From: a virus
IMG/VR virus record: IMGVR_UViG_3300036823_000160
Coordinates: 1 to 64,000 of that record
Strand: one strand, 5' to 3'
DNA length: 64,000 bases
Shown: positions 13,670 to 36,317 of the stretch, piece by piece
Layout of the letters: the number at the start of each line of letters is the position of its first letter
How positions within the stretch are numbered: position 1 is the stretch's first letter
Position numbers and translations under genes: made by a program
The notes under the pieces: generated by a model
What the model was told of the DNA's origin: nothing
Databases searched by the model: none
Seen by the model: the letters and a program-made list of their open reading frames with translations, nothing else

Positions 13670-14443
13670 ATGCAGATTCAGACCGACGTCCTCCAAGTGC
13701 TGTCCACCGTCTCGATCAACGGGAACCTCGCTCGCATCACCGCAGGTGACCTCGATCTCAGGCTCTACCAGCGCGTCGACAAGGTGCTCCAGGCCCTCGG
13801 CGGGAAGTGGGACCGGCGCCAGCGCGCGCATGTGTTCCCGGACTCGCCGAGCCAACGGTTCGAGCTCGCGCTCGCGACGGCCGAGGTCACGACGGACCAG
13901 GAACTCGGCTGGTTCCCGACGCCCGACAAGGTCGCGGACCAGGTCGTGAAGCTCGCGCAGATCGAGGACCGGCACGAGGTACTCGAGCCGAGTGCCGGTC
14001 GCGGCGCGCTCCTGGAAGCGATCGCACGCTCGGGCAAGAAGCCTAACGTCGCCCTGATCGAGTTCGATGATTGTCGATGTGGGTATCTGCTGGGGCTCGT
14101 CGGCCCTTCGCGCCGGATTACCGTCAAGAACAGAGACTTCCTCGCGGTCAAGTTCATGCACGACTTCGATCGCGTCGTGATGAACCCGCCGTTCTGCAAG
14201 GTCGGACGCGGCGACCACCTCGACCATGTGCGGCGCGCGTTCGAGCTCCTGGTCTTCGGTCGCGACGCGCGCCTGGTCGCCGTGCTGCCGCGCTCGATCA
14301 CGTTCCGCCAGGACCGGCGGCACATCGAGTTCCGCACCTGGTACGAGCAGCTCGGCGGCGAGGTCAGCACGCTGCCGGAGGGCGCATTCAAGGAGTCGGG
14401 TACTGGCGTGCATGCCGTCATCCTCGTCCTGGTCAAGCGCTAG
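13670..14443 (+). CDS. N6-adenine-type DNA methyltransferase
   Basis: FPTP, VLEPSAGRG (SAM binding), MNPPF, F..SGT. Confidence 0.9.
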   Translation: MQIQTDVLQVLSTVSINGNLARITAGDLDLRLYQRVDKVLQALGGKWDRRQRAHVFPDSPSQRFELALATAEVTTDQELGWFPTPDKVADQVVKLAQIEDRHEVLEPSAGRGALLEAIARSGKKPNVALIEFDDCRCGYLLGLVGPSRRITVKNRDFLAVKFMHDFDRVVMNPPFCKVGRGDHLDHVRRAFELLVFGRDARLVAVLPRSITFRQDRRHIEFRTWYEQLGGEVSTLPEGAFKESGTGVHAVILVLVKR

Positions 14444-14454
14444 TGCGGCGCCCG

Positions 14455-14480
14455 AGAAGCGAGGGACTGGGTCAGGGGTT
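14455..14480 (+). promoter_or_regulatory. ECF-type promoter (AGAAGC-N17-GTT)
   Basis: Motif member; GTG 9 nt downstream. Confidence 0.65.
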
Positions 14481-14489
14481 CGCTCTAGG

Positions 14490-16766
14490 GTGTCGAACAA
14501 GAAATCGCGGCCTGAACGGCGCGCCGGCGGTCCCAAGGTCGACGACCGCGAGCCAGTCCTGCGCGTGTACTTCGGAGAGGACGAGATCCACGTCGACCTG
14601 TTCGCTGGCGGTGGTGGCGCGTCGGTCGGCGCCGCGCTCGCGACCGGCCGCTCCCCCGACGTCGCGGTGAACCACTCGCCAGTCGCGATCGCGATGCATC
14701 GCGCAAACCATCCCACGACCCGGCACTACATCGAGGACGTGTACGAGGTCGACCCGCGTGTTGCGACTCGCGGTCGGCAGGTCGCGTTACTTTGGCTATC
14801 CCCGACCTGCACGCACCATTCGAAGGCCAAGGGTGCCGCACTCGTCGACCGCAAGATCCGCGGCTTGTGCTGGTCTGCGTTGCCGTGGATCAAACACTGC
14901 CGCCCGCGCGTGATCATCCTCGAGAACGTCGAGGAATTCGCCAAGTGGGGACCGCTCCATCGCCAGCACACGGACGGGTGCGAAGGCGTGAAGTGTGCCA
15001 AGGGGTGTCGATTCGGCACGATGCCCAAGAACCGTCGTGGCAAGGGTCGCATCAAGCACCACGACAAGGGCTGTCCCGGCGTCGAGTGCTCATCCAGGTG
15101 CCGCATCGATCGCCCAATCAAAGCGCGCGAGGCCGAGACCTTCAACGCGTTCGTCGCGAAGATCCGCTCGAAGGGTTACTCGGTCGAGTGGAAGTTCCTG
15201 CGCGCGTGTGACTACGGGGCGCCCACCACGCGCCGGCGCTTGTACATGGTAATGCGCGCGGACGGCCAGCCCGCGAGTTGGCCCGAGGTCACACACGGCC
15301 CGGGACTCGTGCCCTATCGCACCGCGGCCGAGTGCATCGACTGGTCGATCCCGTGCCCGTCGATCTTCGACCGTGAGCGGGCGCTCGCGGACAAGACGAT
15401 GGCGCGGATCGCGCGCGGCGTCCGCAAGTTCGTGATGGAGAGCGAGCGCCCATTCATCGTGCCGGTGAACCACGGCGGTGTCGGACGTCGCGACCTACGC
15501 GTTCACGATTCGGCCGCGCCGATGCCCACGATCACCGGTGGTCAGCGCGGCGGACACGCGGTCGTGGTGCCGATCGTGACGAAGGCCAAGACCCACGGCG
15601 GCGGCAACGGCGTGCACTCGGGCGCAGAGCCGCTAGGAACCGTGACCGCGTCGAAGCGAGGGGAGTTCGCGCTTGCGTCCGCGACGCTTGTTCGCGCCGG
15701 CGCCACGGGTAATTTCCTCGTGTCCCCGGTCGTGGTCCCGGCCACGCACGGCGACTCGCGCGGCCAGCCTGACTCGCGCACGCACGGTGTCGACGAGCCG
15801 CTCCGCACGATCACGACGCTCGGCGCGCAGTTCTCGATCGCGTCTGCCGTTCTGGTTCGCACTGCTCATGGCGATGTCGACGCGTCCGGTAAGCGACGTG
15901 GTCCCGGCGAGCACACGGTCGAAGCTCCGCTCGGTACCGTGTGCGCCGGCGGCACCGATCACGCGATCGCCGCCGCGTATATGGTCCACCGTTCGAACGG
16001 CGAGCGACCGGGTCAGGCGCCGCGCGTCTACGACGTCGAGGACCCACACCCGACCGTTGTCGCCGAGGGGCTCAAGACCGCTGTGTGCGCAGCGTTCCTC
16101 GCCAAGCACAACGGCGGATCGCACGAGAGCAAGAAGGGCGGCCAGGCGGTCACCGCGCCCGCAGATACGATCTCGGCACAGGATCAGAAAGCGGTCACGG
16201 TCGCGCACCTCGTTCGCTACAACAGCGAGAACTCGGCCGCGTCCGCGCGCGGTCAGAGCGCCGACACGCCGGTCTCGACTCTCGATACCGCGAACCGGGT
16301 CGCGGTCGCGACCTCGCACCTGATGAAGCTCCGCGGCACGAGCCCTGCGCACGTCGCATCAAGTTCGCAAGCGGTGGACGCGCCCGCGCCGACGATCTCG
16401 GCCGAGGGCACGCATGTCGCCGAGGTGCGTGCGTTCCTGGTCCGGTACAACGGGCAGTCCGGCCCGCAGAACGTGGACGCGCCCCTCGGCACGCTCGACG
16501 CGACGGATCGGTATGGGCTCGCGACCGTGGTCATCGGCGGGGAGCTGTACGAAATCGTCGACATCGGGATGCGAATGCTCACGCCGCGCGAGCTGTTCGC
16601 TGCACAGGGGTTCCCTCCCACATACCAGATCGACCCCGTCGGCCCGAAGGGTAAGCGCCTGACCAAGACCGAGCAGATCCGCGCGTGCGGGAACTCGGTG
16701 TGTCCGCCGGTAGCTCGCGCGCTCGTCGAAGCCCAGTTCGCGCCGCAGCGCACCGTGGCTGCGTGA
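14490..16766 (+). CDS. C5-cytosine DNA methyltransferase
   Basis: DLFAGGGG, SPTC, ENVEEF, YGAPTTRRR, RMLTPREL..QGFP, GNSV. Confidence 0.95.
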   Translation: MSNKKSRPERRAGGPKVDDREPVLRVYFGEDEIHVDLFAGGGGASVGAALATGRSPDVAVNHSPVAIAMHRANHPTTRHYIEDVYEVDPRVATRGRQVALLWLSPTCTHHSKAKGAALVDRKIRGLCWSALPWIKHCRPRVIILENVEEFAKWGPLHRQHTDGCEGVKCAKGCRFGTMPKNRRGKGRIKHHDKGCPGVECSSRCRIDRPIKAREAETFNAFVAKIRSKGYSVEWKFLRACDYGAPTTRRRLYMVMRADGQPASWPEVTHGPGLVPYRTAAECIDWSIPCPSIFDRERALADKTMARIARGVRKFVMESERPFIVPVNHGGVGRRDLRVHDSAAPMPTITGGQRGGHAVVVPIVTKAKTHGGGNGVHSGAEPLGTVTASKRGEFALASATLVRAGATGNFLVSPVVVPATHGDSRGQPDSRTHGVDEPLRTITTLGAQFSIASAVLVRTAHGDVDASGKRRGPGEHTVEAPLGTVCAGGTDHAIAAAYMVHRSNGERPGQAPRVYDVEDPHPTVVAEGLKTAVCAAFLAKHNGGSHESKKGGQAVTAPADTISAQDQKAVTVAHLVRYNSENSAASARGQSADTPVSTLDTANRVAVATSHLMKLRGTSPAHVASSSQAVDAPAPTISAEGTHVAEVRAFLVRYNGQSGPQNVDAPLGTLDATDRYGLATVVIGGELYEIVDIGMRMLTPRELFAAQGFPPTYQIDPVGPKGKRLTKTEQIRACGNSVCPPVARALVEAQFAPQRTVAA

Positions 16767-17264: not shown

Positions 17265-17915
17265 ATGACCATGCCCCCGGCGCGTATCCCAGCCATCCCG
17301 ACGACGTACAACGGGGTCAACTTCCGATCACGGCTCGAGAGCCGCTGGGCCGCGTTCTTCGACCTGGTGGGATGGCGCTGGTCATACGAGCCGCTCGACC
17401 TCCCTGGTCGCATCCCAGACTTCGTCATGCACTTCGTCGACCCGACGATCATCGAGTGCAAGCCGGCGTTCTCGGTGTCCGAGCTCGCCGAGCAACGGCG
17501 GGCGATGGTTCGGTCGGCGGCGGGCTGGTTGACCGTCGAGGCCGAGCGCGAGCTCCGTCAGCTTGACCGAGCCCCCTATCGCGAGGGCGATCTCACCAGG
17601 ATCGACGCGCTCGTGGAGCACCTGAGCGCCGTCCGCGACCGTGGCGAGAACCCCCGCACGGGGCGGCGGGCGCTGGTTGTCGGTTCCCGCTTGTTTTCGA
17701 CCGGTCCGGGTGACGAGTTCATCTCGCCCGACGGCGAGTGCGTGTTCGCGCGTTGTCACGGTTCGGACGGTCACGTAGCTCTCATGCTTCACACCAGGAC
17801 CTGCATCGCCTGTGGGCGCGATGTCGATTTCGCCCGCCGACATCACGATGTCCCGCGTGACGTGAACGCGTGGTGGACCGAGGCAGGTAACAAGGTGCAG
17901 TGGAAGCCCTCGTGA
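17265..17915 (+). CDS. PD-(D/E)XK-type nuclease
   Basis: TTYNGVNFRSRLESRWA, YEP, IPDF, IECK. Confidence 0.8.
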   Translation: MTMPPARIPAIPTTYNGVNFRSRLESRWAAFFDLVGWRWSYEPLDLPGRIPDFVMHFVDPTIIECKPAFSVSELAEQRRAMVRSAAGWLTVEAERELRQLDRAPYREGDLTRIDALVEHLSAVRDRGENPRTGRRALVVGSRLFSTGPGDEFISPDGECVFARCHGSDGHVALMLHTRTCIACGRDVDFARRHHDVPRDVNAWWTEAGNKVQWKPS

Positions 17916-20854
17916 ACGAGATCGCCCACAGCCCAGACATCGGGGCGGCGATGGGGTTCTTGCGCTCCTGGATCCCAGGAGGGCCGTGGAGCCTTGGCGC
18001 GATCGATCCCGATGATCGCCAGGGCCTTGCTTGGATCACTACCGAGAGCGAGGTCGAGGCCGAACGGTTCCTCGTCGAGCAGTCGGCGCTCCGGCGCGGG
18101 ATCTACTACCAGCCGAACGTGTGCCGAGACGACCTCGGTCCACGCCGTGCGAAGAAGGAGCACGTCGCGGTCGCGCTCTGTCTCCACGCCGATGTGGACC
18201 CGCCGGCTGTCGCGTCCGCGGCCGAGCTTGCCGCGTGGCAGGTGACGACGATGGAGCGGCTCGCCGACGGTGAGCACTGGCGCGCGAGCGAGCTTCCGGC
18301 GCCGACCGCGATCGTGTTCTCTGGCTCCGGCTTCCAGCTGCTATGGCGGCTGGCAGAGCCGGTGCTGCTCTGGTCCGACACGAACGGAAGCACGGAGCAA
18401 GACCCCGCGCTCGTCGACTCGGTCGAGGGCCGCTGCTACTCCATCATCCGGCGCGTGGACCCGTCGCACGTTGGGACGCACAACGTCGATCGGCTTCTCC
18501 GTCTGCCAGGGACGCTCAACTGGCCGAACGAGAAGAAGCGCGCGAACGGGCGCACGATCCCGGAGCTCGCGGCGGTCGAGTGGATCGGCAACGACCACAC
18601 GCTCGAAGCGTTCCCGTACGAGCAGCCGCCCGAGTCAGCCGAGGCAGCTCCACGCTCCGAGGGCGCGGCTGCGCTCGCCCGTGAAGGCCGGGTAGCACCG
18701 GCCGCGCTCGCGGCCGCGCTTCCGCCGTGGCTGCACGAGGCTGTGGTCGAGGGTCCCGAGAAGGGCGCAGACCGGAGCAAGGCCGCGTTCGCGGCCATCT
18801 GCGGGCTGATCCGTTGCGTCGACGACGACACGATCGAGGCGATTCTCGGCGACCCTGCATTCGCCGTGAGCGGGCACTTCCTAGATCAAGCTGACGTCGA
18901 GCGAGCGATCGGTCGCGCGATCGATGCCGCGCACCTGGAAGTGGACGTAAAGATTGCACAAGGGCGACGGCTACTGGAGGCCATGCAGCGCGAGCTCGCC
19001 CGGCGCGCGCCGGTCCTCGCGGTCCCGGTCACGCCCCCTCCGGCGCCCTCGCCTCCGCCACTGGTTCTGGAACTCGAGGTCGCGCCTCCGAACCCGCTCG
19101 CGTTCGTGTTGCCCTCGCCGAGCGAGCCCGCGTCCACAGGCGCTCCTTCGATCCCGACGACGATCGAGTTCGAGGCCGCGCTGCGATCCGTTCAACGTCG
19201 CCTGAGTCGCCGTGTGGATCCCGATGCGATCCAGGACGCCGAGTTGCTGAAGCGCGTTCTGGAAGGCGAGTTCCTGACGGCGGCAACGGACGCCGAGGAC
19301 GATCGACAGGGCACGCTAGCGCGCGCCGTGCTCGCAGTCGCGCGCGCGGCTCCTCCGGGGGCGACCTCGGACCAGATCCATCGCCAGCTTCTCGCCAGCT
19401 CAGGAGCACTTGCGTGTGATCTGCCGGAGGTGATCCAAGAGGCTCTCGTGGTCGCCATCGAGCTCGGCCCGATTGGTCTGCCGGTTCGAAAGGAATCCGC
19501 GACCCTCGCGGCGCGCGCGAGCGATCCCGATGATTTCGACATCGAGCTGAGCGGTCCGCGTGCGGGGCGCCCCGCGAGCGCGAACCAGCGCAACGTGCGC
19601 CTCGCACTGCGCAAGCTCGGCGTCGAGCTCCGCTACAACGACTTCGCGCGCCAGGAGGAGATCGTTCGCGGCGGTCGCGTCGATGTCGTCGAAGATCCGC
19701 ACGTGAAGGCGTTGCGCGCTGAGATGGAGTCCGCGCACGACTTCCGTCCCGGCAAGGACGACCTGTTCGACATGTGCGAGGTGATCGCGCGCGAGAATGC
19801 GTATCACCCTATCCGCGACTACCTGGCGTCGCTCCCCGAGGACGCGCCCGCTGGATCGCCCGCGAAGTTGACCGAGCGCTGGCTGATCGACTGTGCCGGC
19901 GCCGAGGACACCCCATATGTGCGCGCGGTCTCGCGCCTCGTGCTGGTCGCCGCGGTGCGGCGCGTGCGCCATCCGGGATGCAAGTTCGATGAGATGCTGG
20001 TCCTGGAGACGCCAATCCAGGGCAAGGACAAGTCCAAGGCTCTCGCCGCGCTCGCGGTTCGCGACGAGTGGTTCACCGACGATTTCAACTTCAAGAACGT
20101 CGACGACACCAAGAAGATGATGGAGACCACGACCGGTCGCTGGATCGTCGAGGCCGGCGAGCTAAAGGGCATGAACGAGGGTCGCTACAACGACCTCAAG
20201 GCGTACCTGTCCCGTCGCAAGGACGCCGCACGCGCCGCGTACGGACGAAAAACCACGACGGTGTTTCGCGAGTTCATCATCATCGGAACGACCAACGAGC
20301 AAAAGTACCTGCTCGATCCCACGGGCAACCGTCGAATCTGGCCGGTTCGTGTGGTGCGCTTCGACGTCCTCGCACTGCTCGCGATGCGCGATCAACTGTG
20401 GGCGGAGGCTTCGCGCCTGGAGCTCGAGCACCCCGAGCCGGAGTATATCCGGCTCGATCCCGAGCTCTATGCGGCGGCGGCCGAACAGCAGGCCGCGCGC
20501 GAGGTCGATGATCCGATCCGCGAACGCCTGGATCGGGTCCTCGCCGACATCACCGGGCGGATCCGTGTCGAGGACGCGTGGAAAATCGTTGGCTACGAAG
20601 ACGAGATCCCAAACCGCAGGGACAGCATGGCGATCTCCTCTGCGATGCAGTCGCTCGGGTTCGCACAGAGGCGAATCACGCAGGCTGGGGATCGTGGGAC
20701 CTGGTACCGCCGCGGCGCGACCGAAGAGGAGCGTGACCAGATCCTCGGCTTGACCGGCGGTGCCGCTGCGGGCTGGCGCGTCGGTCCAAAAGCAGGTGTC
20801 TATGGCGCGCGCCGATCCGGCCCATTGTCCGGTCCTGACCGGCGCGCGAACTAG
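17912..20854 (+). CDS. primase-helicase: RepB-like primase domain plus VapE/VirE P-loop domain
   Basis: LHADVD, SGSGFQLLW, DRLLRLPGT; YHPIRDYL, PGCKFD..LVLE..QGKDKS, IGTTN..YL.DPTGNRR.WP. Confidence 0.9.
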   Translation: MNEIAHSPDIGAAMGFLRSWIPGGPWSLGAIDPDDRQGLAWITTESEVEAERFLVEQSALRRGIYYQPNVCRDDLGPRRAKKEHVAVALCLHADVDPPAVASAAELAAWQVTTMERLADGEHWRASELPAPTAIVFSGSGFQLLWRLAEPVLLWSDTNGSTEQDPALVDSVEGRCYSIIRRVDPSHVGTHNVDRLLRLPGTLNWPNEKKRANGRTIPELAAVEWIGNDHTLEAFPYEQPPESAEAAPRSEGAAALAREGRVAPAALAAALPPWLHEAVVEGPEKGADRSKAAFAAICGLIRCVDDDTIEAILGDPAFAVSGHFLDQADVERAIGRAIDAAHLEVDVKIAQGRRLLEAMQRELARRAPVLAVPVTPPPAPSPPPLVLELEVAPPNPLAFVLPSPSEPASTGAPSIPTTIEFEAALRSVQRRLSRRVDPDAIQDAELLKRVLEGEFLTAATDAEDDRQGTLARAVLAVARAAPPGATSDQIHRQLLASSGALACDLPEVIQEALVVAIELGPIGLPVRKESATLAARASDPDDFDIELSGPRAGRPASANQRNVRLALRKLGVELRYNDFARQEEIVRGGRVDVVEDPHVKALRAEMESAHDFRPGKDDLFDMCEVIARENAYHPIRDYLASLPEDAPAGSPAKLTERWLIDCAGAEDTPYVRAVSRLVLVAAVRRVRHPGCKFDEMLVLETPIQGKDKSKALAALAVRDEWFTDDFNFKNVDDTKKMMETTTGRWIVEAGELKGMNEGRYNDLKAYLSRRKDAARAAYGRKTTTVFREFIIIGTTNEQKYLLDPTGNRRIWPVRVVRFDVLALLAMRDQLWAEASRLELEHPEPEYIRLDPELYAAAAEQQAAREVDDPIRERLDRVLADITGRIRVEDAWKIVGYEDEIPNRRDSMAISSAMQSLGFAQRRITQAGDRGTWYRRGATEEERDQILGLTGGAAAGWRVGPKAGVYGARRSGPLSGPDRRAN

Positions 20855-27430: not shown

Positions 27431-27651
27431 GTGTGCGCGCCGAGTTCCAGACCCACCTCCTGAACGAGCGCGGGCTCGCCGCCGCGAGCGCGATTGGCCA
27501 GGTGTTCTCGGACGCGCTCGACAAGATCGAGGCGCTCGTCCCCTCGGGCCGCGAGCGCGCGCTCGTCACTACCAAGTTGCAGGAGGCGGCTTTCTTTGCC
27601 AAGCGCGCGATCGCGGTCGACCCCGCGAACCAGATCAAGGACGAGTCGTGA
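27427..27651 (+). CDS. Acb2/Tad1-like helical hairpin protein (putative cyclic-nucleotide sponge)
   Basis: PSGRERALVTTKLQEAAFFAKRAIA fits the P..RE.A...TKL.EA....RAIA pattern. Confidence 0.65.
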   Translation: MSVRAEFQTHLLNERGLAAASAIGQVFSDALDKIEALVPSGRERALVTTKLQEAAFFAKRAIAVDPANQIKDES

Positions 27652-27893
27652 TCAAGCTCGTCATCGCCGCAGCCCTCGTGCTGTCCGGGTGCAGGCACGC
27701 CGTGCCGCGCGAGTGGCGCGGCATTCCAGCGGGCCAGCGCTCGTGCTCGTGGCAAGACCACCGGGGTACCTGCGTCACGGACAGTCGCGCGTACCTGTGC
27801 ATCGACGACTGGCAGGAGAACCTGGTCGCGTGCGCGCCGATCGTCTCGCCGCCGTTGCCGCCCCCATCCTCACCACCGGCGGAACAGCCGTGA
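27648..27893 (+). CDS. small Cys-rich lipoprotein
   Basis: MIKLVIAAALVLSG-C lipobox. Confidence 0.7.
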   Translation: MIKLVIAAALVLSGCRHAVPREWRGIPAGQRSCSWQDHRGTCVTDSRAYLCIDDWQENLVACAPIVSPPLPPPSSPPAEQP

Positions 27894-28732
27894 CCGCGCG
27901 TCTACCGGTCATCGGCTCGACCGCGAAGTCGACCGCGTTCGTGAGCGAGCGCCTCGACGGGCTCAATGGAACGTACCTGTTCCTCGACGGGAACGACAAG
28001 ATCACCGCGGGCAACGGGACACCCGGCGAGCCGAAGGCGAACGCGTTATCGCTCGTCCAGATCCAGGACTGTCCGGGCTCGACAGAGACGTGCCGCAAGA
28101 GCTGCTACGTTCATCCGCTCCAGAGCGCGCAGCCGGATCTACACGCACTCTATACGCACAACAGCACCGAGATCCGGCGCATCCTCGCGGACAAGCACCT
28201 CGCCGACGACTGGTCGAGGCGCCTCGCGAGCTGGATCTCGGCGAACGCTAGCGCGGGCTTTCGCTGGCATGTGAGCGGCGACGTGTTCTCGCTCGAGTAC
28301 GCCGAGTGGATCGCGGACGTGTGCCGCGAGAGCGCGAGCGTGCGCTCGTGGATCTACACGCGCTCGTTCCAATTCCTCGAGCCGCTTGTCGAAGTGTCCA
28401 CCACTCGCGGCGGCAACCTCGCGCTTAACCTGTCGGCGGACCAGGACAATTACCTCAACGCGTTCCAGGCGGTGGCGGCGCATCGCGTCCTCGGCCAATC
28501 CGTGCTGCGGATCTGCTACCTCACGACGGATGGCGAGATCCCGTTGTCGCTGCCGTTCGACTCGGTCGTGTTCCCGGACTACGCGCTGCGTCCGCGCCAG
28601 CACGCGACCCTCGCCGATAGCGAGTGGTGGCAGGGGCTCGAGCCGCGCCAACGCGCGATGGTCTGTCCGGTCGATGCGCACGGCAAGGCAGAGAAGCGGC
28701 GCTGTGGGCCCTGTCGTAAGTGCATGGACTAG
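27890..28732 (+). CDS. GP88-family (radical-SAM-like) protein
   Basis: GN.K, CPGSTETCRKSCY, FRWHVSGD, WIYTRS, C-terminal CxxCxxC. Confidence 0.8.
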   Translation: MTARLPVIGSTAKSTAFVSERLDGLNGTYLFLDGNDKITAGNGTPGEPKANALSLVQIQDCPGSTETCRKSCYVHPLQSAQPDLHALYTHNSTEIRRILADKHLADDWSRRLASWISANASAGFRWHVSGDVFSLEYAEWIADVCRESASVRSWIYTRSFQFLEPLVEVSTTRGGNLALNLSADQDNYLNAFQAVAAHRVLGQSVLRICYLTTDGEIPLSLPFDSVVFPDYALRPRQHATLADSEWWQGLEPRQRAMVCPVDAHGKAEKRRCGPCRKCMD

Positions 28733-29969: not shown

Positions 29970-30325
29970 CACACCTGCGCTGGCTCGTGGATCGTTTGGT
30001 GTCTCGGGTGTGGTTCTGGCGCCATCACATCGAGGCCGTGATGCCGACCGACCAGGTTGGTCAGTACATGGCCGAGTGCTCGTGCGGTGGCGGGGTGCAG
30101 TTCGTGGCGCACTGGTCGCACGCGTCCGTGATCACGGTCTCGACGTGCGCGCTCGGCTCATGGTTGATGTGCCGCGGTCACGGTGTCGCGTTGTCACCCG
30201 CACGCATCGATCGATCGAGCGCTGAAAGCGCTCGCCCGATCTCGCGGTTCCTCGTCGAGTGCAGCTCGACCGCGTCGCCTCGTTTAGTACGACCGCGCTT
30301 GCGTTCGACCTCGAGACCCACGTAG
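29966..30325 (+). CDS. hypothetical protein (3' end uncertain, overlaps polA start)
   Basis: ATGA-coupled start. Confidence 0.4.
   Translation: MTHLRWLVDRLVSRVWFWRHHIEAVMPTDQVGQYMAECSCGGGVQFVAHWSHASVITVSTCALGSWLMCRGHGVALSPARIDRSSAESARPISRFLVECSSTASPRLVRPRLRSTSRPT
30224..30249 (+). promoter_or_regulatory. ECF-type promoter of polA (GAAAGC-N17-GTT)
   Basis: GTG 30259 is 9 nt downstream. Confidence 0.7.
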
Positions 30326-31728
30326 TACAGCCAGGGCTTCTAGTCCCGCCTGTCGTGTGCGGGTCGGCGGCGTGGCTCGAACCCGGACCGACGATCGCGG
30401 GTGCCCTCCTGGCCAAACAAGACGCGCTCGAGGCGTTCGCGAACGCGATCGAGGACCCGAACGTCGTCATCGTGGGCGCGAATATCGCCTACGACCTCGC
30501 GTGCTGTGTCGTCGAGCTCGCTCGGCTGGGCGTCGACGCGATACCTCAGGTGTTCGGCGCGCTCGAGGACGGCCGCGTGTTCGACGTGCAGATTGCCGAG
30601 GCGCTCAACGCGATCGCGTGCGGTCACCTTGGCAAGGATCCAAGGACGATGCAGCCGATCGTCACGCCGGGCACGAAGAAGCGTGGCCGGTACTCACTCT
30701 CGACCTGCGTCCTTCACGTGCTAGGACGCAGCGACGCGAAGGCGAACGACGAGTGGCGACTGCGCTACGCCGAGCTCGAGCACGTGCCGATCGCGGACTG
30801 GCCTACGGCCGCGCGCGACTACCCCATCGACGACGCGAAGAACACGCTTGAGGTCGGGCTAGCTCAGACAGGGCAGTTGCCGAAGGTCTATTCTAAGCAC
30901 TCGTTCGTCGACGTCGAAGGGCCCGAGAACCAGATCACGAGCGCGTGCCAGAACTGCGGCTCGACTCGGCACGCGATCGAATGCGTCGGTCGCGGGCCAC
31001 ACGCCAATCTCGTCGACCACGCGCGCCAGGTCCATACCGCGTTCTGTCTCCACCTCGGCGCGATGTGGGGGTTCCATGTCGATCAGGACGCGGTCGACAT
31101 CATCGAGCGTCACGCGATCCGTGATCGCGACAACGGTGTGACCCCGTTCCGCGAGGCCGGGATCGTGCGCGAGGACGGATCCGAGGACCAGTCGCTCCTC
31201 AAGAAACTTGTCCTGCTCGCATACGCACCGGACAGCGCCCCGTGCCCGTGCTGTGCCGGGACCGGCAGGATCCCCAGCCCGACGCAGAAACCCCTCCGGT
31301 GCCCGGCCTGTCGAGGCCGCTGCCAGCCCTGGAAGGGCGGCGGCAAGATCAAGGAGCCGACGGTCGAGTACTGCGCTACGTGCGCGACCGAGCAGTGCCC
31401 CACGGGATCGGGAAAGGTCCCCCACCCGAGGCCCGAGTTGATCGGCTGTGTCCTGCCCGAGAAGGTCAAGACCTGCGACGGAACCGGGTACGCGCTGACC
31501 GAGAGCGTTCCCAAGACGAACACCGGCGGCGTGGGCAAGGGCCGCAGCGTGCTGCACGAGTCCGGGGACGAGTTCCTGATGCGGCTCGGCGACTACAAGA
31601 AAAACGCGAAGGTCCTGCGCGTATACGTGCCGTACTTGCGCGGCGTCTTGATCGAGGACGACGAACACGGGGACGGCGCCGCCGTGGCTCCCGTAGAGGA
31701 ACCGGAGGAGGCCAGCGATGCTGAGTGA
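30259..31728 (+). CDS. polA: family A DNA polymerase, N-terminal part (3'-5' exonuclease plus thumb, with Zn-finger inserts)
   Basis: ExoI AFDLET, ExoII GANIAYD, ExoIII DYPIDD, WGFHVD, K..KVLRVYVPYL. Confidence 0.85.
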   Translation: MQLDRVASFSTTALAFDLETHVVQPGLLVPPVVCGSAAWLEPGPTIAGALLAKQDALEAFANAIEDPNVVIVGANIAYDLACCVVELARLGVDAIPQVFGALEDGRVFDVQIAEALNAIACGHLGKDPRTMQPIVTPGTKKRGRYSLSTCVLHVLGRSDAKANDEWRLRYAELEHVPIADWPTAARDYPIDDAKNTLEVGLAQTGQLPKVYSKHSFVDVEGPENQITSACQNCGSTRHAIECVGRGPHANLVDHARQVHTAFCLHLGAMWGFHVDQDAVDIIERHAIRDRDNGVTPFREAGIVREDGSEDQSLLKKLVLLAYAPDSAPCPCCAGTGRIPSPTQKPLRCPACRGRCQPWKGGGKIKEPTVEYCATCATEQCPTGSGKVPHPRPELIGCVLPEKVKTCDGTGYALTESVPKTNTGGVGKGRSVLHESGDEFLMRLGDYKKNAKVLRVYVPYLRGVLIEDDEHGDGAAVAPVEEPEEASDAE

Positions 31729-31969
31729 CTTAGATAGCGAGTGCCCGAACGACTGCTGGTGCCGCTTTGTGCGCGTGGACGGTGTTCCCATCGAGATCGA
31801 GGAAGACAAACCGTTCACGGACCCTCGCTCGATCGCGTGCCCCGAAGCGGCCTGTGTGGGTACGCTTCGCTCCGGCGGACGCAACGTTCCCAACACACTC
31901 ACGTTCCTGATCTGCGACGTGTGCGCGTGCGCGTATGTCGCCGAGGACCGGCCGGGGATCTCGACGTGA
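31718..31969 (+). CDS. Cys-rich 83-aa protein between the two polA halves
   Basis: GGAGGAG SD at 31704-31710; 8 Cys; TGA overlaps GTG 31966. Confidence 0.65.
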   Translation: MLSDLDSECPNDCWCRFVRVDGVPIEIEEDKPFTDPRSIACPEAACVGTLRSGGRNVPNTLTFLICDVCACAYVAEDRPGIST

Positions 31970-33243
31970 CGCGCACGGTCCCGCTCACGCTGCGGCCGAA
32001 CGTGATCGTCGATACCGGACGCGTCTCGTATGACGGCGTGGTCCAGCTGTTCCCACGCAAGGGTGGCTATCGGGATCGCCAGAGCAAGGAGTGGGTCCCG
32101 TCGCTGCGCGAGTGTATCGTCGCTCGTCCCGGCTACGTGTTCTCGAGCGAGGACTACACGGCCGGCGAACTGTTCACGCATGCACAGTCGTGCCTGTGGT
32201 TGCTCGGGTACTCCGATCTCGCCAAGACCCTACTCGCGGGCATCAATCCGCACGCCGAGCTCGCGTCGCGCGTGCTCGGGATCGCCTACGAGCAGTTCGA
32301 CAAGAAGATCAAGCAGCACGCCGACACGCGCCAGGCCGCCAAGCCCGTCGTGTTCGGCAAGCCGGGAGGCATGGGTGACGCGAAGATGGTCATCCAGCAG
32401 CGCTCGCAAGGCCCGGACACGCCGTGCCCCGACGGGCCGTCCGAGGTCGACGACGGTAACGGCGACAAGGTCCCCGGCTATACGGGGTTGCGGTTCTGCG
32501 TTCTGATGAACGGTGCGCGCCGGTGTGGCGAGCACCCGGACGGCCGGCCGAACCGGACCACGCGCTGGGGCGGCAAGTACTCGAAGCCGATCGCGCCGAC
32601 GTGCGTAGCGTGTCTTGAGTGCGCGGCCCAGATCAGCCGGATCTGGAAGGACTCGGGTCGAGAGAACCAGCCCTACTTCAACCTCGTCGAGGAATTCGGC
32701 GAGTACGGCATGACCATCACGCCGGACATGATCGCGCGCTGGCCGTGGATCGGCGAGTGGTACGAGCCCGGCCAGCAGTTGGCGCCTGGCCAGGTGATGC
32801 AGCACTGGTCGGGGAGGCTTCGCGGCGGCCTCGATTTCTGCGACATGGCGAACGGGTTCTTTCAGGCGCTGCTCGCGGACGCGACGAAGTCCGCGCTGCG
32901 CCGCATCGTGCGCGAGTGCTACGTCCACACGATTGTTCCCGAGTTCGCGCACGAGAACTCGCGGCGCTCGCAGTTCGCAGGCTGTCCGTCACCGTTACTG
33001 GGTTCGCGCGCGATCGGGTTCTTCCATGATGAACTCTTTATGGAGCATCCCGAGTCGATCGCACACGAGGCCGCGACGCGCGTGTCCGAGATCATGGTCG
33101 AGGAGCTCGTGTGGATCTGCCCCGACGTCGGGCCGAAGGTATCCGCGGAACCGACGCTGATGCGCCGCTGGAGCAAGAGCGCGGAGAAGGTCACGGACGC
33201 CAACGGGCGCCTGATCCCGTGGGAGCCGCGGATCGCGGCGTAG
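31966..33243 (+). CDS. polA: family A DNA polymerase, C-terminal part (palm/fingers)
   Basis: TGRVS, motif A DYTAGEL, motif B RQAAKPVVFGKPGG, NGFFQALLAD, motif C HDE. Confidence 0.9.
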   Translation: MTRTVPLTLRPNVIVDTGRVSYDGVVQLFPRKGGYRDRQSKEWVPSLRECIVARPGYVFSSEDYTAGELFTHAQSCLWLLGYSDLAKTLLAGINPHAELASRVLGIAYEQFDKKIKQHADTRQAAKPVVFGKPGGMGDAKMVIQQRSQGPDTPCPDGPSEVDDGNGDKVPGYTGLRFCVLMNGARRCGEHPDGRPNRTTRWGGKYSKPIAPTCVACLECAAQISRIWKDSGRENQPYFNLVEEFGEYGMTITPDMIARWPWIGEWYEPGQQLAPGQVMQHWSGRLRGGLDFCDMANGFFQALLADATKSALRRIVRECYVHTIVPEFAHENSRRSQFAGCPSPLLGSRAIGFFHDELFMEHPESIAHEAATRVSEIMVEELVWICPDVGPKVSAEPTLMRRWSKSAEKVTDANGRLIPWEPRIAA

Positions 33244-33244
33244 C

Positions 33245-33270
33245 GAAAGCGCAAGAACGAGTTCGCGGTT
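33245..33270 (+). promoter_or_regulatory. ECF-type promoter (GAAAGC-N17-GTT)
   Basis: ATG 9 nt downstream. Confidence 0.7.
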
Positions 33271-33279
33271 GCGGGCCGC

Positions 33280-33819
33280 ATGAGCCAGAAGACGACCACG
33301 ACCTGCGACCACTGCAAGGCACACACGGGCACGTACGTGACCGCGTTCGGAAACTCGACCAGTTTGATATCCGAGACGCGGCACTACTGCGAGATGTGCT
33401 GGAATGGGTTCGCGGCCGCGATTGCGCTCGGTCCCGACGACGCACTGACTCGCGCACTGCACAAGCTAGAGTCCGCCGAGCGCGACTGCCGTACGGCCGA
33501 GACTTCGGCCACAACCGAGAAGGCTCGGGTCGAGTATCTGTCGAAAGAGGGTGCGGCAGCGGCCCAGCGTGCGTCCGTGGCCGAGCGGCGCGTTGCCGAG
33601 CTCGAGGCACGTTTCAAGGACGCGTGCGCAGCGCAGGGGCAGCTTCAGGGTCAGCTGCAGACCTTCGAGCTTGCGGCGCGCACCGTGTCGAGTGCCGCCG
33701 ATCAGCTCCTGGTCGAGATGCGCGGGAAGGACCGGCGCCGTTACCAGGACCTCATTGACGGACTCGCGGAAGCGATCGACAAGTGGTCCGAAGTCGTGGG
33801 CGCGGAGGGCGTCCAGTGA
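33280..33819 (+). CDS. Zn-finger plus coiled-coil hypothetical protein
   Basis: CDHC..CEMC, then heptad-like region. Confidence 0.7.
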   Translation: MSQKTTTTCDHCKAHTGTYVTAFGNSTSLISETRHYCEMCWNGFAAAIALGPDDALTRALHKLESAERDCRTAETSATTEKARVEYLSKEGAAAAQRASVAERRVAELEARFKDACAAQGQLQGQLQTFELAARTVSSAADQLLVEMRGKDRRRYQDLIDGLAEAIDKWSEVVGAEGVQ

Positions 33820-34892: not shown

Positions 34893-36317
34893 ATGATCAG
34901 AATTCAAGCACTCCTCGTGTTCGCACTCGTGACCACCCTCGCGTGCGAACGCGGCCCACTCCAGTCCGCGGACTCGGCCGAACTGGTCACCGGCGCTCTC
35001 GGGAATTGTGCTGTCCCGGCGGCAATTCCCGACGACGGTTTCGATGACCTGGGTGCGATCCAGGCCGCGCTCGACGGCCAAGGCTGCGCCGAGCTCGGAA
35101 CCGGCCGATACGACATCTTCACGCCATCCGAGCCCAAGACGGGGCGCCGACCGATCGCGATGCTGGTCGTGTCGTCAGGAGAGCGCCTCTCCGGCGCAGG
35201 TCCCGGGACCACGCTTGCGTTCTCGGGTTCCGCGCAGCTCGCGGACTGGTACGGCGTCGAGGTGACCGGCTCGGGCGCCGAGATCGAGGACCTCACCATC
35301 GACTCGACCGAGGTCACTGGCGCGTCCGAGCAGACGCACGCGGTGCAGGTGACCGGGCCCGCGACCGCCGTCTCCGTGCGCAGCGTGTGGTTCGATCATG
35401 CGCCGGCGCCGAACGGCGGCGACTGCATCAAGGTGGTGGGCTACCCGGCCACGGAGGTCGTCGGTCTAGATCTCGAGCACGACGAGTTCATGCACTGTCC
35501 GCGCTCCGGCGTGGACGTCCACTCCGGCCTTCACGGCCTGCGCCTCACCGATAGCGGGTTCTACGGCGTGGCCAAGGTCGACATCACGAGCGAGGACGGC
35601 TCCGACAAGTCGGGGTGGGTGATCGCGAACAATGTGATGACCGAAGTCGGGATCGGTGACGCGATCGACCTCGAGTACGTCGACGGTGTCACGATCGCGA
35701 ACAACACGATGCTGGGACGCGGCTTTTTCGCGTTCGACACGTCGCATCTGTCGTTCACCGGGAACTACGTAGCCGAGACCGCGGGCACCGCCTCCGGGGG
35801 CGTCGTGTACCTCGAACGTAACGTCACCGACGCGGTGCTGACCGGTAACGTGATCCTCCGCGGACCAGGCGCGCCGGCCGGTCCTGCGGTCGAGCTCGCG
35901 GCCGACAACGGGGGCTGGCCCCAGCGCGTGAGCCTCTACGCGAACCAGGTCTATCAAGGCGGTGCGTCATCGGCGATCGTGATCGCGACCGGGATCGACA
36001 TCACGGTCGCCGGCAACGACGTGTACCTCGCGGACAGCGACAGCACCGCAATGGGTATCTCGATCACCGGTGTGTCCGCTCGCTCGGACTCGATCGCGAT
36101 CGCAAACAACCGCATCCGCGGCGTCTCGATCGCGGCCGCCCTTCGCATCTCGGGCTCGTACGACGGCCTCGGCGCAATCACCGCGACCGGTAACACCGCG
36201 CGCGGCGCGGCCACGGGCCTGCGCTGCGAAACCCCCAGCGGGATCGCCGGCCCCGTCGTCAGCACGGGCAACAACTGGCCGGCGAGCGGCTGCACGATCG
36301 CAACCGCGGGGCTGTAA
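34893..36317 (+). CDS. right-handed beta-helix (pectin-lyase-fold) lipoprotein
   Basis: TLA-C lipobox-like signal; DDGFDDLGAIQAALD cap; repeated I.NN/GN rungs. Confidence 0.8.
   Translation: MIRIQALLVFALVTTLACERGPLQSADSAELVTGALGNCAVPAAIPDDGFDDLGAIQAALDGQGCAELGTGRYDIFTPSEPKTGRRPIAMLVVSSGERLSGAGPGTTLAFSGSAQLADWYGVEVTGSGAEIEDLTIDSTEVTGASEQTHAVQVTGPATAVSVRSVWFDHAPAPNGGDCIKVVGYPATEVVGLDLEHDEFMHCPRSGVDVHSGLHGLRLTDSGFYGVAKVDITSEDGSDKSGWVIANNVMTEVGIGDAIDLEYVDGVTIANNTMLGRGFFAFDTSHLSFTGNYVAETAGTASGGVVYLERNVTDAVLTGNVILRGPGAPAGPAVELAADNGGWPQRVSLYANQVYQGGASSAIVIATGIDITVAGNDVYLADSDSTAMGISITGVSARSDSIAIANNRIRGVSIAAALRISGSYDGLGAITATGNTARGAATGLRCETPSGIAGPVVSTGNNWPASGCTIATAGL

Follow-up and report, generated by a model that had tools for sequence, protein, structure and literature searches.

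In the Aeromonas phage Aeh1, insertion of a homing endonuclease gene, mobE, is said (in work by Friedrich et al. in PNAS in 2007) to have made nrdA into a functional gene-in-pieces, the pieces of which reassemble into an active enzyme. A comparable arrangement, in which a replication-related phage gene is cut into two open reading frames (ORFs) by an inserted gene, is described here for a family A DNA polymerase (PolA) in a stretch of 64,000 nucleotides (nt), positions 1 to 64,000 of the IMG/VR virus record IMGVR_UViG_3300036823_000160, which is called the window throughout. Two genes for the amino-terminal and carboxy-terminal parts of the enzyme (the N-half and the C-half) flank an ORF of 83 amino acids (aa), and we consider that this soil phage probably encodes a functional family A polymerase in two genes (“genes-in-pieces”), with the 83-aa gene as a passenger. 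Unlike mobE, the gene in the gap of the window is no recognisable nuclease; EndoVII-type HNH genes do occupy the PolA gap at two other loci, L005 and L047, in the same overlapping layout as that of the window.

The OM43 phages MEP401 and MEP402 have a published PolA of two ORFs flanking a small unknown one (PMC10580990), and they resemble the window in that the two PolA ORFs and the small ORF (77 aa) lie on one strand at close spacing and in that the break falls between the thumb and motif A. Inspection of OP830906 showed that the N-half of MEP401 ends ...LFLSRYGE and its C-half starts MILNADAKALE, so that the break lies immediately before the motif A strand, at the equivalent of site 3 as defined below and about 55 residues downstream of the break in the window. 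The inserted ORF of MEP401 has no Cys and is unrelated to the 83-aa ORF, its N-half has no acidic tail, and its polymerase lineage, that of a marine, low-GC phage, is unrelated to the window's. A split PolA with a small ORF is already published, and what the window adds is a different break site, a new passenger gene and a clade in which the two-gene form is predominant.

Split inteins and a free-standing endonuclease have also been described in fractured genes (Dassa et al. 2009; PMC2677866), and what these genes share with the window is a phage gene for DNA synthesis whose two halves are parted by another gene. Unlike them, the window has no split-intein halves, and protein trans-splicing is not expected because the tail of its N-half is 27 aa long and disordered and its C-half begins on polymerase sequence. 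Polymerases of HMO-2011-type phages carry a Cys-rich, DnaJ-like CxxCxGxG segment between the exonuclease and polymerase domains and are described as single polypeptides (PMC9038755), whereas the window's enzyme, which has a DnaJ-like finger of this kind (CPCCAGTG; a likeness by motif), is encoded in two.

Anatomy of the split polymerase genes

All three genes lie on the + strand. The N-half gene (30259 to 31728, from GTG 30259 to TGA 31726-31728) encodes 489 aa comprising an exonuclease, DnaJ-like CxxCxGxG fingers and a thumb, and ends, after YVPYLRG, in an acidic tail of 27 aa (31645 to 31725; VLIEDDEHG...EEPEEASDAE), 11 of them Asp or Glu, which has no counterpart in unsplit PolA. Within the tail codons for P-E-E-A lies the Shine-Dalgarno (SD) sequence GGAGGAGG (31704 to 31711), 6 nt before the start of the 83-aa, 8-Cys, zinc-ribbon-like ORF, which runs in the +1 frame from ATG 31718 to TGA 31967-31969 (31718 to 31969) and overlaps the end of the N-half gene by 11 nt and the start of the C-half gene by 4 nt (GTGA). 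The C-half gene (31966 to 33243) encodes 425 aa from GTG 31966, opening with the residues (V/M)TRTVPLTLRPNVIVDTGRVSY; its product holds the TGRVSY segment and a conserved four-Cys cluster as well as the palm and fingers, with motifs A, B and C. The frames of the two halves are identical, and two stops intervene in that frame (31726 to 31737; TGA 31726 and TAG 31735). A scan of the + strand between the three genes found neither promoter nor terminator, and because of this and of the start/stop overlaps the pieces appear to be made together, the three ORFs forming one translationally coupled unit.

This anatomy agrees with an initial annotation of the window, which had read an exonuclease and thumb ORF with an acidic tail ending at TGA 31726, an 83-aa, 8-Cys ORF in another frame behind a strong SD with its TGA overlapping GTG 31966, and two stops (31726 and 31735) between halves of common frame; it had also seen no intein motifs, and neither half gave an intein match in Pfam, the tail being short and the C-half opening on polymerase sequence. 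GC at third codon positions (GC3) in the polymerase frame is 0.85-0.88 on either side of the gap and remains high through the acidic tail, whereas between the stop and GTG 31966 it is 0.53 in the polymerase frame against 0.80 in the 83-aa frame, which indicates that the latter is the coding frame of the gap.

The sole GenBank phage relative, MW202816.1, has an unsplit polymerase of 729 aa, to which residues 14-460 of the N-half and 8-422 of the C-half align as consecutive stretches, six residues apart, and hence two adjacent ORFs jointly cover the unsplit homologue, as is the mark of genes-in-pieces. This alignment with an unsplit homologue, a check that the initial annotation had proposed, places the break between ...YVPYLRG and TRTVPLTLRPN..., 62 residues ahead of the motif A aspartate, and leaves a segment of 321 nt (31645 to 31965) without counterpart in the unsplit enzyme.

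Misassembly had been named by the same annotation as something that would refute its reading. When the soil run that is probably the source was re-assembled in Logan, with a different assembler and not independently of the source reads, the result was a single 74.8-kb contig at a depth of about 14 that is identical over 30200 to 33300, with both stops in place and no indel. A contig of 189 nt from a separate soil study (31735 to 31923) again has no indel, and its single difference, T>C at 31861, is a synonymous change in the frame of the 83-aa ORF. Among the sequencing runs listed as containing the sequence, none is of RNA.

As single sequences, the N-half matches Pfam DNA_pol_A_exo1 weakly (17.6 against a cut-off of 23.6) and the C-half scores slightly below the cut-off for DNA_pol_A (31.4 against 34.3), while both alike match phrog_17. 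In alignments, the exo I, II and III residues D17, E19, N75, D79, Y188 and D192 are unchanged across 25 N-halves and the polymerase motif residues D63, E68, R122, K126, F130 and H354-D355-E356 across 38 C-halves. A profile of the C-half matches structures of Pol I, Klenow and Taq (E down to 2e-11); the N-half profile had no match among PDB sequences at E<=0.01. These features identify the pair as a predicted family A DNA polymerase with 3'-5' exonuclease. In an AlphaFold2 (AF2) model of the N-half (predicted local distance difference test score, pLDDT, 86) the last long helix, residues 438-462, ends at YLRG, and the model is confident to residue 463, whereas tail residues 464-489 have pLDDT <50 and are disordered.

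The split is a trait of the polymerase clade

Close PolA relatives were not found by a single-protein query of IMG/VR but were found by an alignment query. Relatives numbered 254 for the C-half (E<=1e-5) and 277 for the N-half (E<=1e-10). The closest relative, on a contig of 22,904 bp, has an N-half of 478 aa (64% identity) and a C-half of 427 aa (65%) that begins at the same residue as the window's and opens MRVIPLTLRPN (the P0176/P0005 contig). When N-only and C-only proteins were paired by the equal size of their contigs, about 30 contigs, some of them longer than 100 kb, were found to hold one N-only and one C-only gene.

The starts of the C-halves fall at three neighbouring sites upstream of motif A, namely before PLTLRPN (site 1, the window's own), before [YW][IV]PSLREC (site 2) and just before the motif A strand (site 3). 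C-halves across many lineages open M..[IV]P[LI]TLRPN, with relatives using ATG at the position of the window's GTG. A FastTree tree of 125 C-half cores grouped the window with two other site-1 forms (support 96), nested in a clade of 59 rows (support 99) that is split almost throughout. Over the whole tree the break site and split state are scattered, with 35 changes, at least 9 of them forced for site 1 by well-supported branches, although some of the 125 rows are fragments from short contigs and these counts are rough.

What lies at the junction varies among the loci of relatives. One locus with a site-1 break has overlapping genes and an empty gap (L011), and three others with the same break (L012-L014) have in the gap an 88-aa ORF with an N-terminal Cys motif and a sigma70_r4-like helix-turn-helix (HTH). 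At L005 (4678-7828) the break is at site 2, with an EndoVII-type HNH gene in the gap (Pfam 3.6e-23) and an in-frame knuckle at site 1. Unsplit polymerases either carry in-frame Cys/His knuckles of 25-33 aa at site 1 (L003, L008 and L009) or have no insert (L004, L006, L007, L010 and L015-L017). The initial annotation had considered that homologues might carry the intervening sequence as an in-frame insert, and the junction inserts found in them are these knuckles, which are unrelated to it. The genes in the PolA gaps of viral contigs overlap both neighbours throughout, as in the window. Because split, knuckle and gap-gene variants recur there, the thumb/palm junction appears to be a permissive hot spot.

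Some details of these variants were also recorded. The sigma70 region 4 HTH match (L012:5529-6004, L013:5747-6013 and the equivalent in L014) has a Pfam E of 7.6e-5, below the cut-off, and the L012 gap holds an additional ORF of 60 aa. The in-frame knuckles (L003:5860-6060, L008:5842-6060 and L009:5802-6017, and also in proteins P0009 and P0024) have patterns such as GH...CP...C.C.GPYRD or C..C...PH...C and sit exactly at the window's break junction, where P0229 has a Cys-rich insert of about 95 aa.

The 83-aa ORF and its family

The Cys residues of the 83-aa ORF are at positions 9, 13, 15, 41, 46, 66, 69 and 71. A whole-library search with a hidden Markov model found 53 representatives of its family (E<1e-3), which are mostly 57-120 aa long and have the consensus C..CPC..C.G.L.sDGRN...TLTFL.C..C.C.Y.A.D, in which Cys 41, 46, 66, 69 and 71 are conserved. 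Pfam recognised no family in any of the members, and the ORF in the window was also without a PHROG match. Its AF2 model (pLDDT 80 overall and >90 for residues 41-80) shows a sheet of three strands (49-55, 61-66 and 72-76) with Cys knuckles; the best Foldseek matches to this model were the ribbons of Elf1, Rpb9 and NrdR, none of them significant (E>=0.49), and an Atlas search likewise gave zinc-ribbon leads only, again non-significant. No match was found in GenBank phages by tblastn with the 83-aa ORF or with P0130.

Three members of the family (L043:649-939, L044:3-662 and L045:4158-4511) lie in GC-rich metagenome contigs where PolA is not nearby and no other gene is in common with the window, and neither 40 PolA loci nor the complete records of five relatives yielded a member. 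Because of this distribution the 83-aa ORF most likely joined a gene that was split beforehand, as a passenger and not as a dedicated third subunit. Its only close homologue is P0003 (62 aa, 59% identity); metagenome and viral scans with an alignment of this close pair, seeking the context of P0003 and of the closest split contig, gave no match.

Other identities for the ORF were tried and rejected. As an in-frame domain of relatives, its sequence had no significant match within about 235 PolA proteins, and as a decayed HNH gene it gave an hhalign probability of 0.1% against the EndoVII HNH of L005. The longer family members P0147, P0152, P0157 and P0170 have unannotated N-terminal extensions.

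A probable two-gene polymerase and the alternatives to it

A functional two-gene polymerase would work as follows. Gene 1 would supply the exonuclease, DnaJ-like finger and thumb in a piece ending in the disordered acidic tail, gene 2 would supply the palm and fingers in a piece beginning 62 residues ahead of the motif A aspartate, and the two proteins would reassemble without being covalently joined. The junction at the break would be a permissive one, broken again and again within the polymerase clade, and such breaks were probably first caused by a free-standing EndoVII-type HNH homing endonuclease of the kind present in the gap of some relatives. The 83-aa gene would then be a small gene of sporadic occurrence in phages that settled in the gap and rides on the expression of the polymerase, and its protein is probably not needed for polymerase activity.

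Several points weigh against this account. No homing endonuclease was recognisable in the gap of the window by Pfam, PHROG or hhalign, so that the HNH origin is drawn from relatives, and the sorting of relatives by where the protein starts takes in some proteins that are fragments because their contigs are short. The contig of P0003 has 22,763 bp and is near in size to that of the closest split PolA (22,904 bp), and a link between the 83-aa gene and PolA might thus be conserved in this lineage; a true subunit would also be consistent with how tightly the 83-aa ORF is coupled to both halves. These last points would suit a three-subunit polymerase, in which the 83-aa protein is a structural or functional part, for example in place of the in-frame Cys/His knuckle that is present at the junction in L003, L005, L008, L009, P0009 and P0024 and absent from the halves in the window. 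We consider this unlikely, since family members occur in unrelated contexts (L043-L045) and not in the 40 PolA loci or five relative genomes searched, no similarity of the ORF could be detected either with the in-frame knuckles or with a PolA relative, and splits at the same site have an empty gap or a different gene in it. The initial annotation had suggested a natural two- or three-subunit PolA, and of these the two-subunit form is the one favoured by the recurrence of the split, the retention of motifs and the coupling, while the three-subunit form is disfavoured by the occurrence of the 83-aa family elsewhere without PolA.

Loss of some 320 nt through splicing or ribosomal bypass, which that annotation had also offered, found no support. 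Joining of the halves by removal of the 321 nt, whether through a self-splicing intron, ribosomal bypass, a double frameshift or protein splicing, would explain their common frame and an insert divisible by three, and other polymerase genes of phages do contain group I introns, a possibility raised for MEP401 (PMC10580990). A common frame is, however, expected by chance in 1/3 of cases, and 249 of the 321 nt (78%) code for a conserved protein in the other frame, which leaves 72 nt outside the ORF. An Rfam cmscan of 31000 to 32600 at E<=10 found no intron family, a 361-nt region folds no better than shuffled sequence (minimum free energy z-score 0.47), and the flanking repeats are short and at chance level only, with no target-site duplication. 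For bypass of the T4 gene 60 type, the gap of 321 nt is coding and has no special structure, the take-off and landing codons not having been looked at. The 27-aa tail and a C-half starting on polymerase sequence leave no space for intein halves, and the same site in L011 has merely overlapping genes, and joining is on this evidence very improbable. We give equally little credence to the split being artefactual, through misassembly or paired indel errors, or a sign of recent decay in a dying pseudogene: the record is metagenome-assembled and two indels could convert an in-frame insert into the frame pattern observed, but the other assembler gave identical sequence, the second study spans most of the gap without an indel, a relative of 65% identity is split identically, both halves have high GC3 and intact motifs, and the 83-aa sequence is in-frame in no relative.

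If the polymerase is indeed a functional pair, a replicative family A polymerase tolerates encoding in two pieces with the break between thumb and palm. The two-gene form is widespread in one soil-phage clade and not a single oddity. In annotation, such halves should be joined and not labelled as truncated genes, and the natural break points would offer permissive sites for engineered split polymerases. The 83-aa family is another unnamed small phage protein family with a predicted zinc site, for which the sole functional clue is co-expression with the replicase.

Acidic tails and basic leaders of the split forms

At each of the three break sites the N-halves tend to finish with (V)EVPDDYVLQPGE followed by acidic residues, a tail that is present in 32 of the 77 N-half-only relatives and in 0 of the 54 full-length relatives. 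The corresponding residues of the window (VLIEDDEHG...) and of the closest relative (ALVDDDFDP...) resemble degenerate versions of it. C-halves of sites 2 and 3 often open M[KL]IRRP[VI]. A pattern scan found a further case at L047 (1001-4224), in which a PolA with the (V)EVPDDYVLQPGE tail overlaps an EndoVII HNH gene downstream (35% identity with the HNH of L005), after which comes a C-half opening MKKILRPV; the window halves gave no tblastn match to the L047 PolA at E<=1e-3. The tail codons of L005 and L047 differ at synonymous positions, which argues that the tail is conserved as a peptide. The terminal run of Glu can be due in part to the SD of the overlapping downstream gene, which does not explain the motif upstream of it.

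Because the tail is specific to split forms, occurs at three sites and recurs on L047 next to an HNH gene, we tentatively suggest that the acidic N-half tail and the basic C-half leader may be a portable pair of docking tags on a PolA-specific homing cassette, of which the window might be a descendant that has lost the endonuclease, kept a degenerate tail and gained a new passenger. Such docking tags would let PolA survive cutting at several sites, as a non-covalent functional analogue of a split intein, and the split-specific tail could serve as a ready-made reassembly tag.

The tail was also considered as a general feature of EndoVII-HNH cassettes and rejected as such, being absent from 78 further HNH loci. 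The survey of tail-bearing N-halves covers the protein ids P0177-P0289.

Genomic context and further features of the polymerase

Between the exonuclease and the thumb, the DnaJ-like CxxCxGxG fingers occupy 31243 to 31560 of the window (N-half residues 329-434), with CPCCAGTG and more Cys pairs at residues 329-410, and relatives match PF00684. In the C-half, C178, C187, C213 and C216 (32497 to 32613; residues 178-216) are unchanged across 38 relatives, and these four invariant Cys suggest an extra metal site. Three relatives have large additional segments, P0061 (743 aa, with about 310 aa extra after motif A), P0094 (496 aa) and P0196 (681 aa, with an in-frame insert after PGFID); in these three proteins Pfam found no family besides DNA_pol_A, and the segments could be inteins or other insertions.

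The source record is a 77.5-kb virus record with a completeness rating of 100% and a GC content of about 66%. The polymerase genes are placed within a + strand replication block, alongside a C5 cytosine methylase fused to a larger protein (14226 to 16766; 846 aa), a VapE-like primase/helicase (17900 to 20854; 984 aa) and a gene for a GP88-family protein (27494 to 28732), and a beta-helix protein is encoded at 34893 to 36317.

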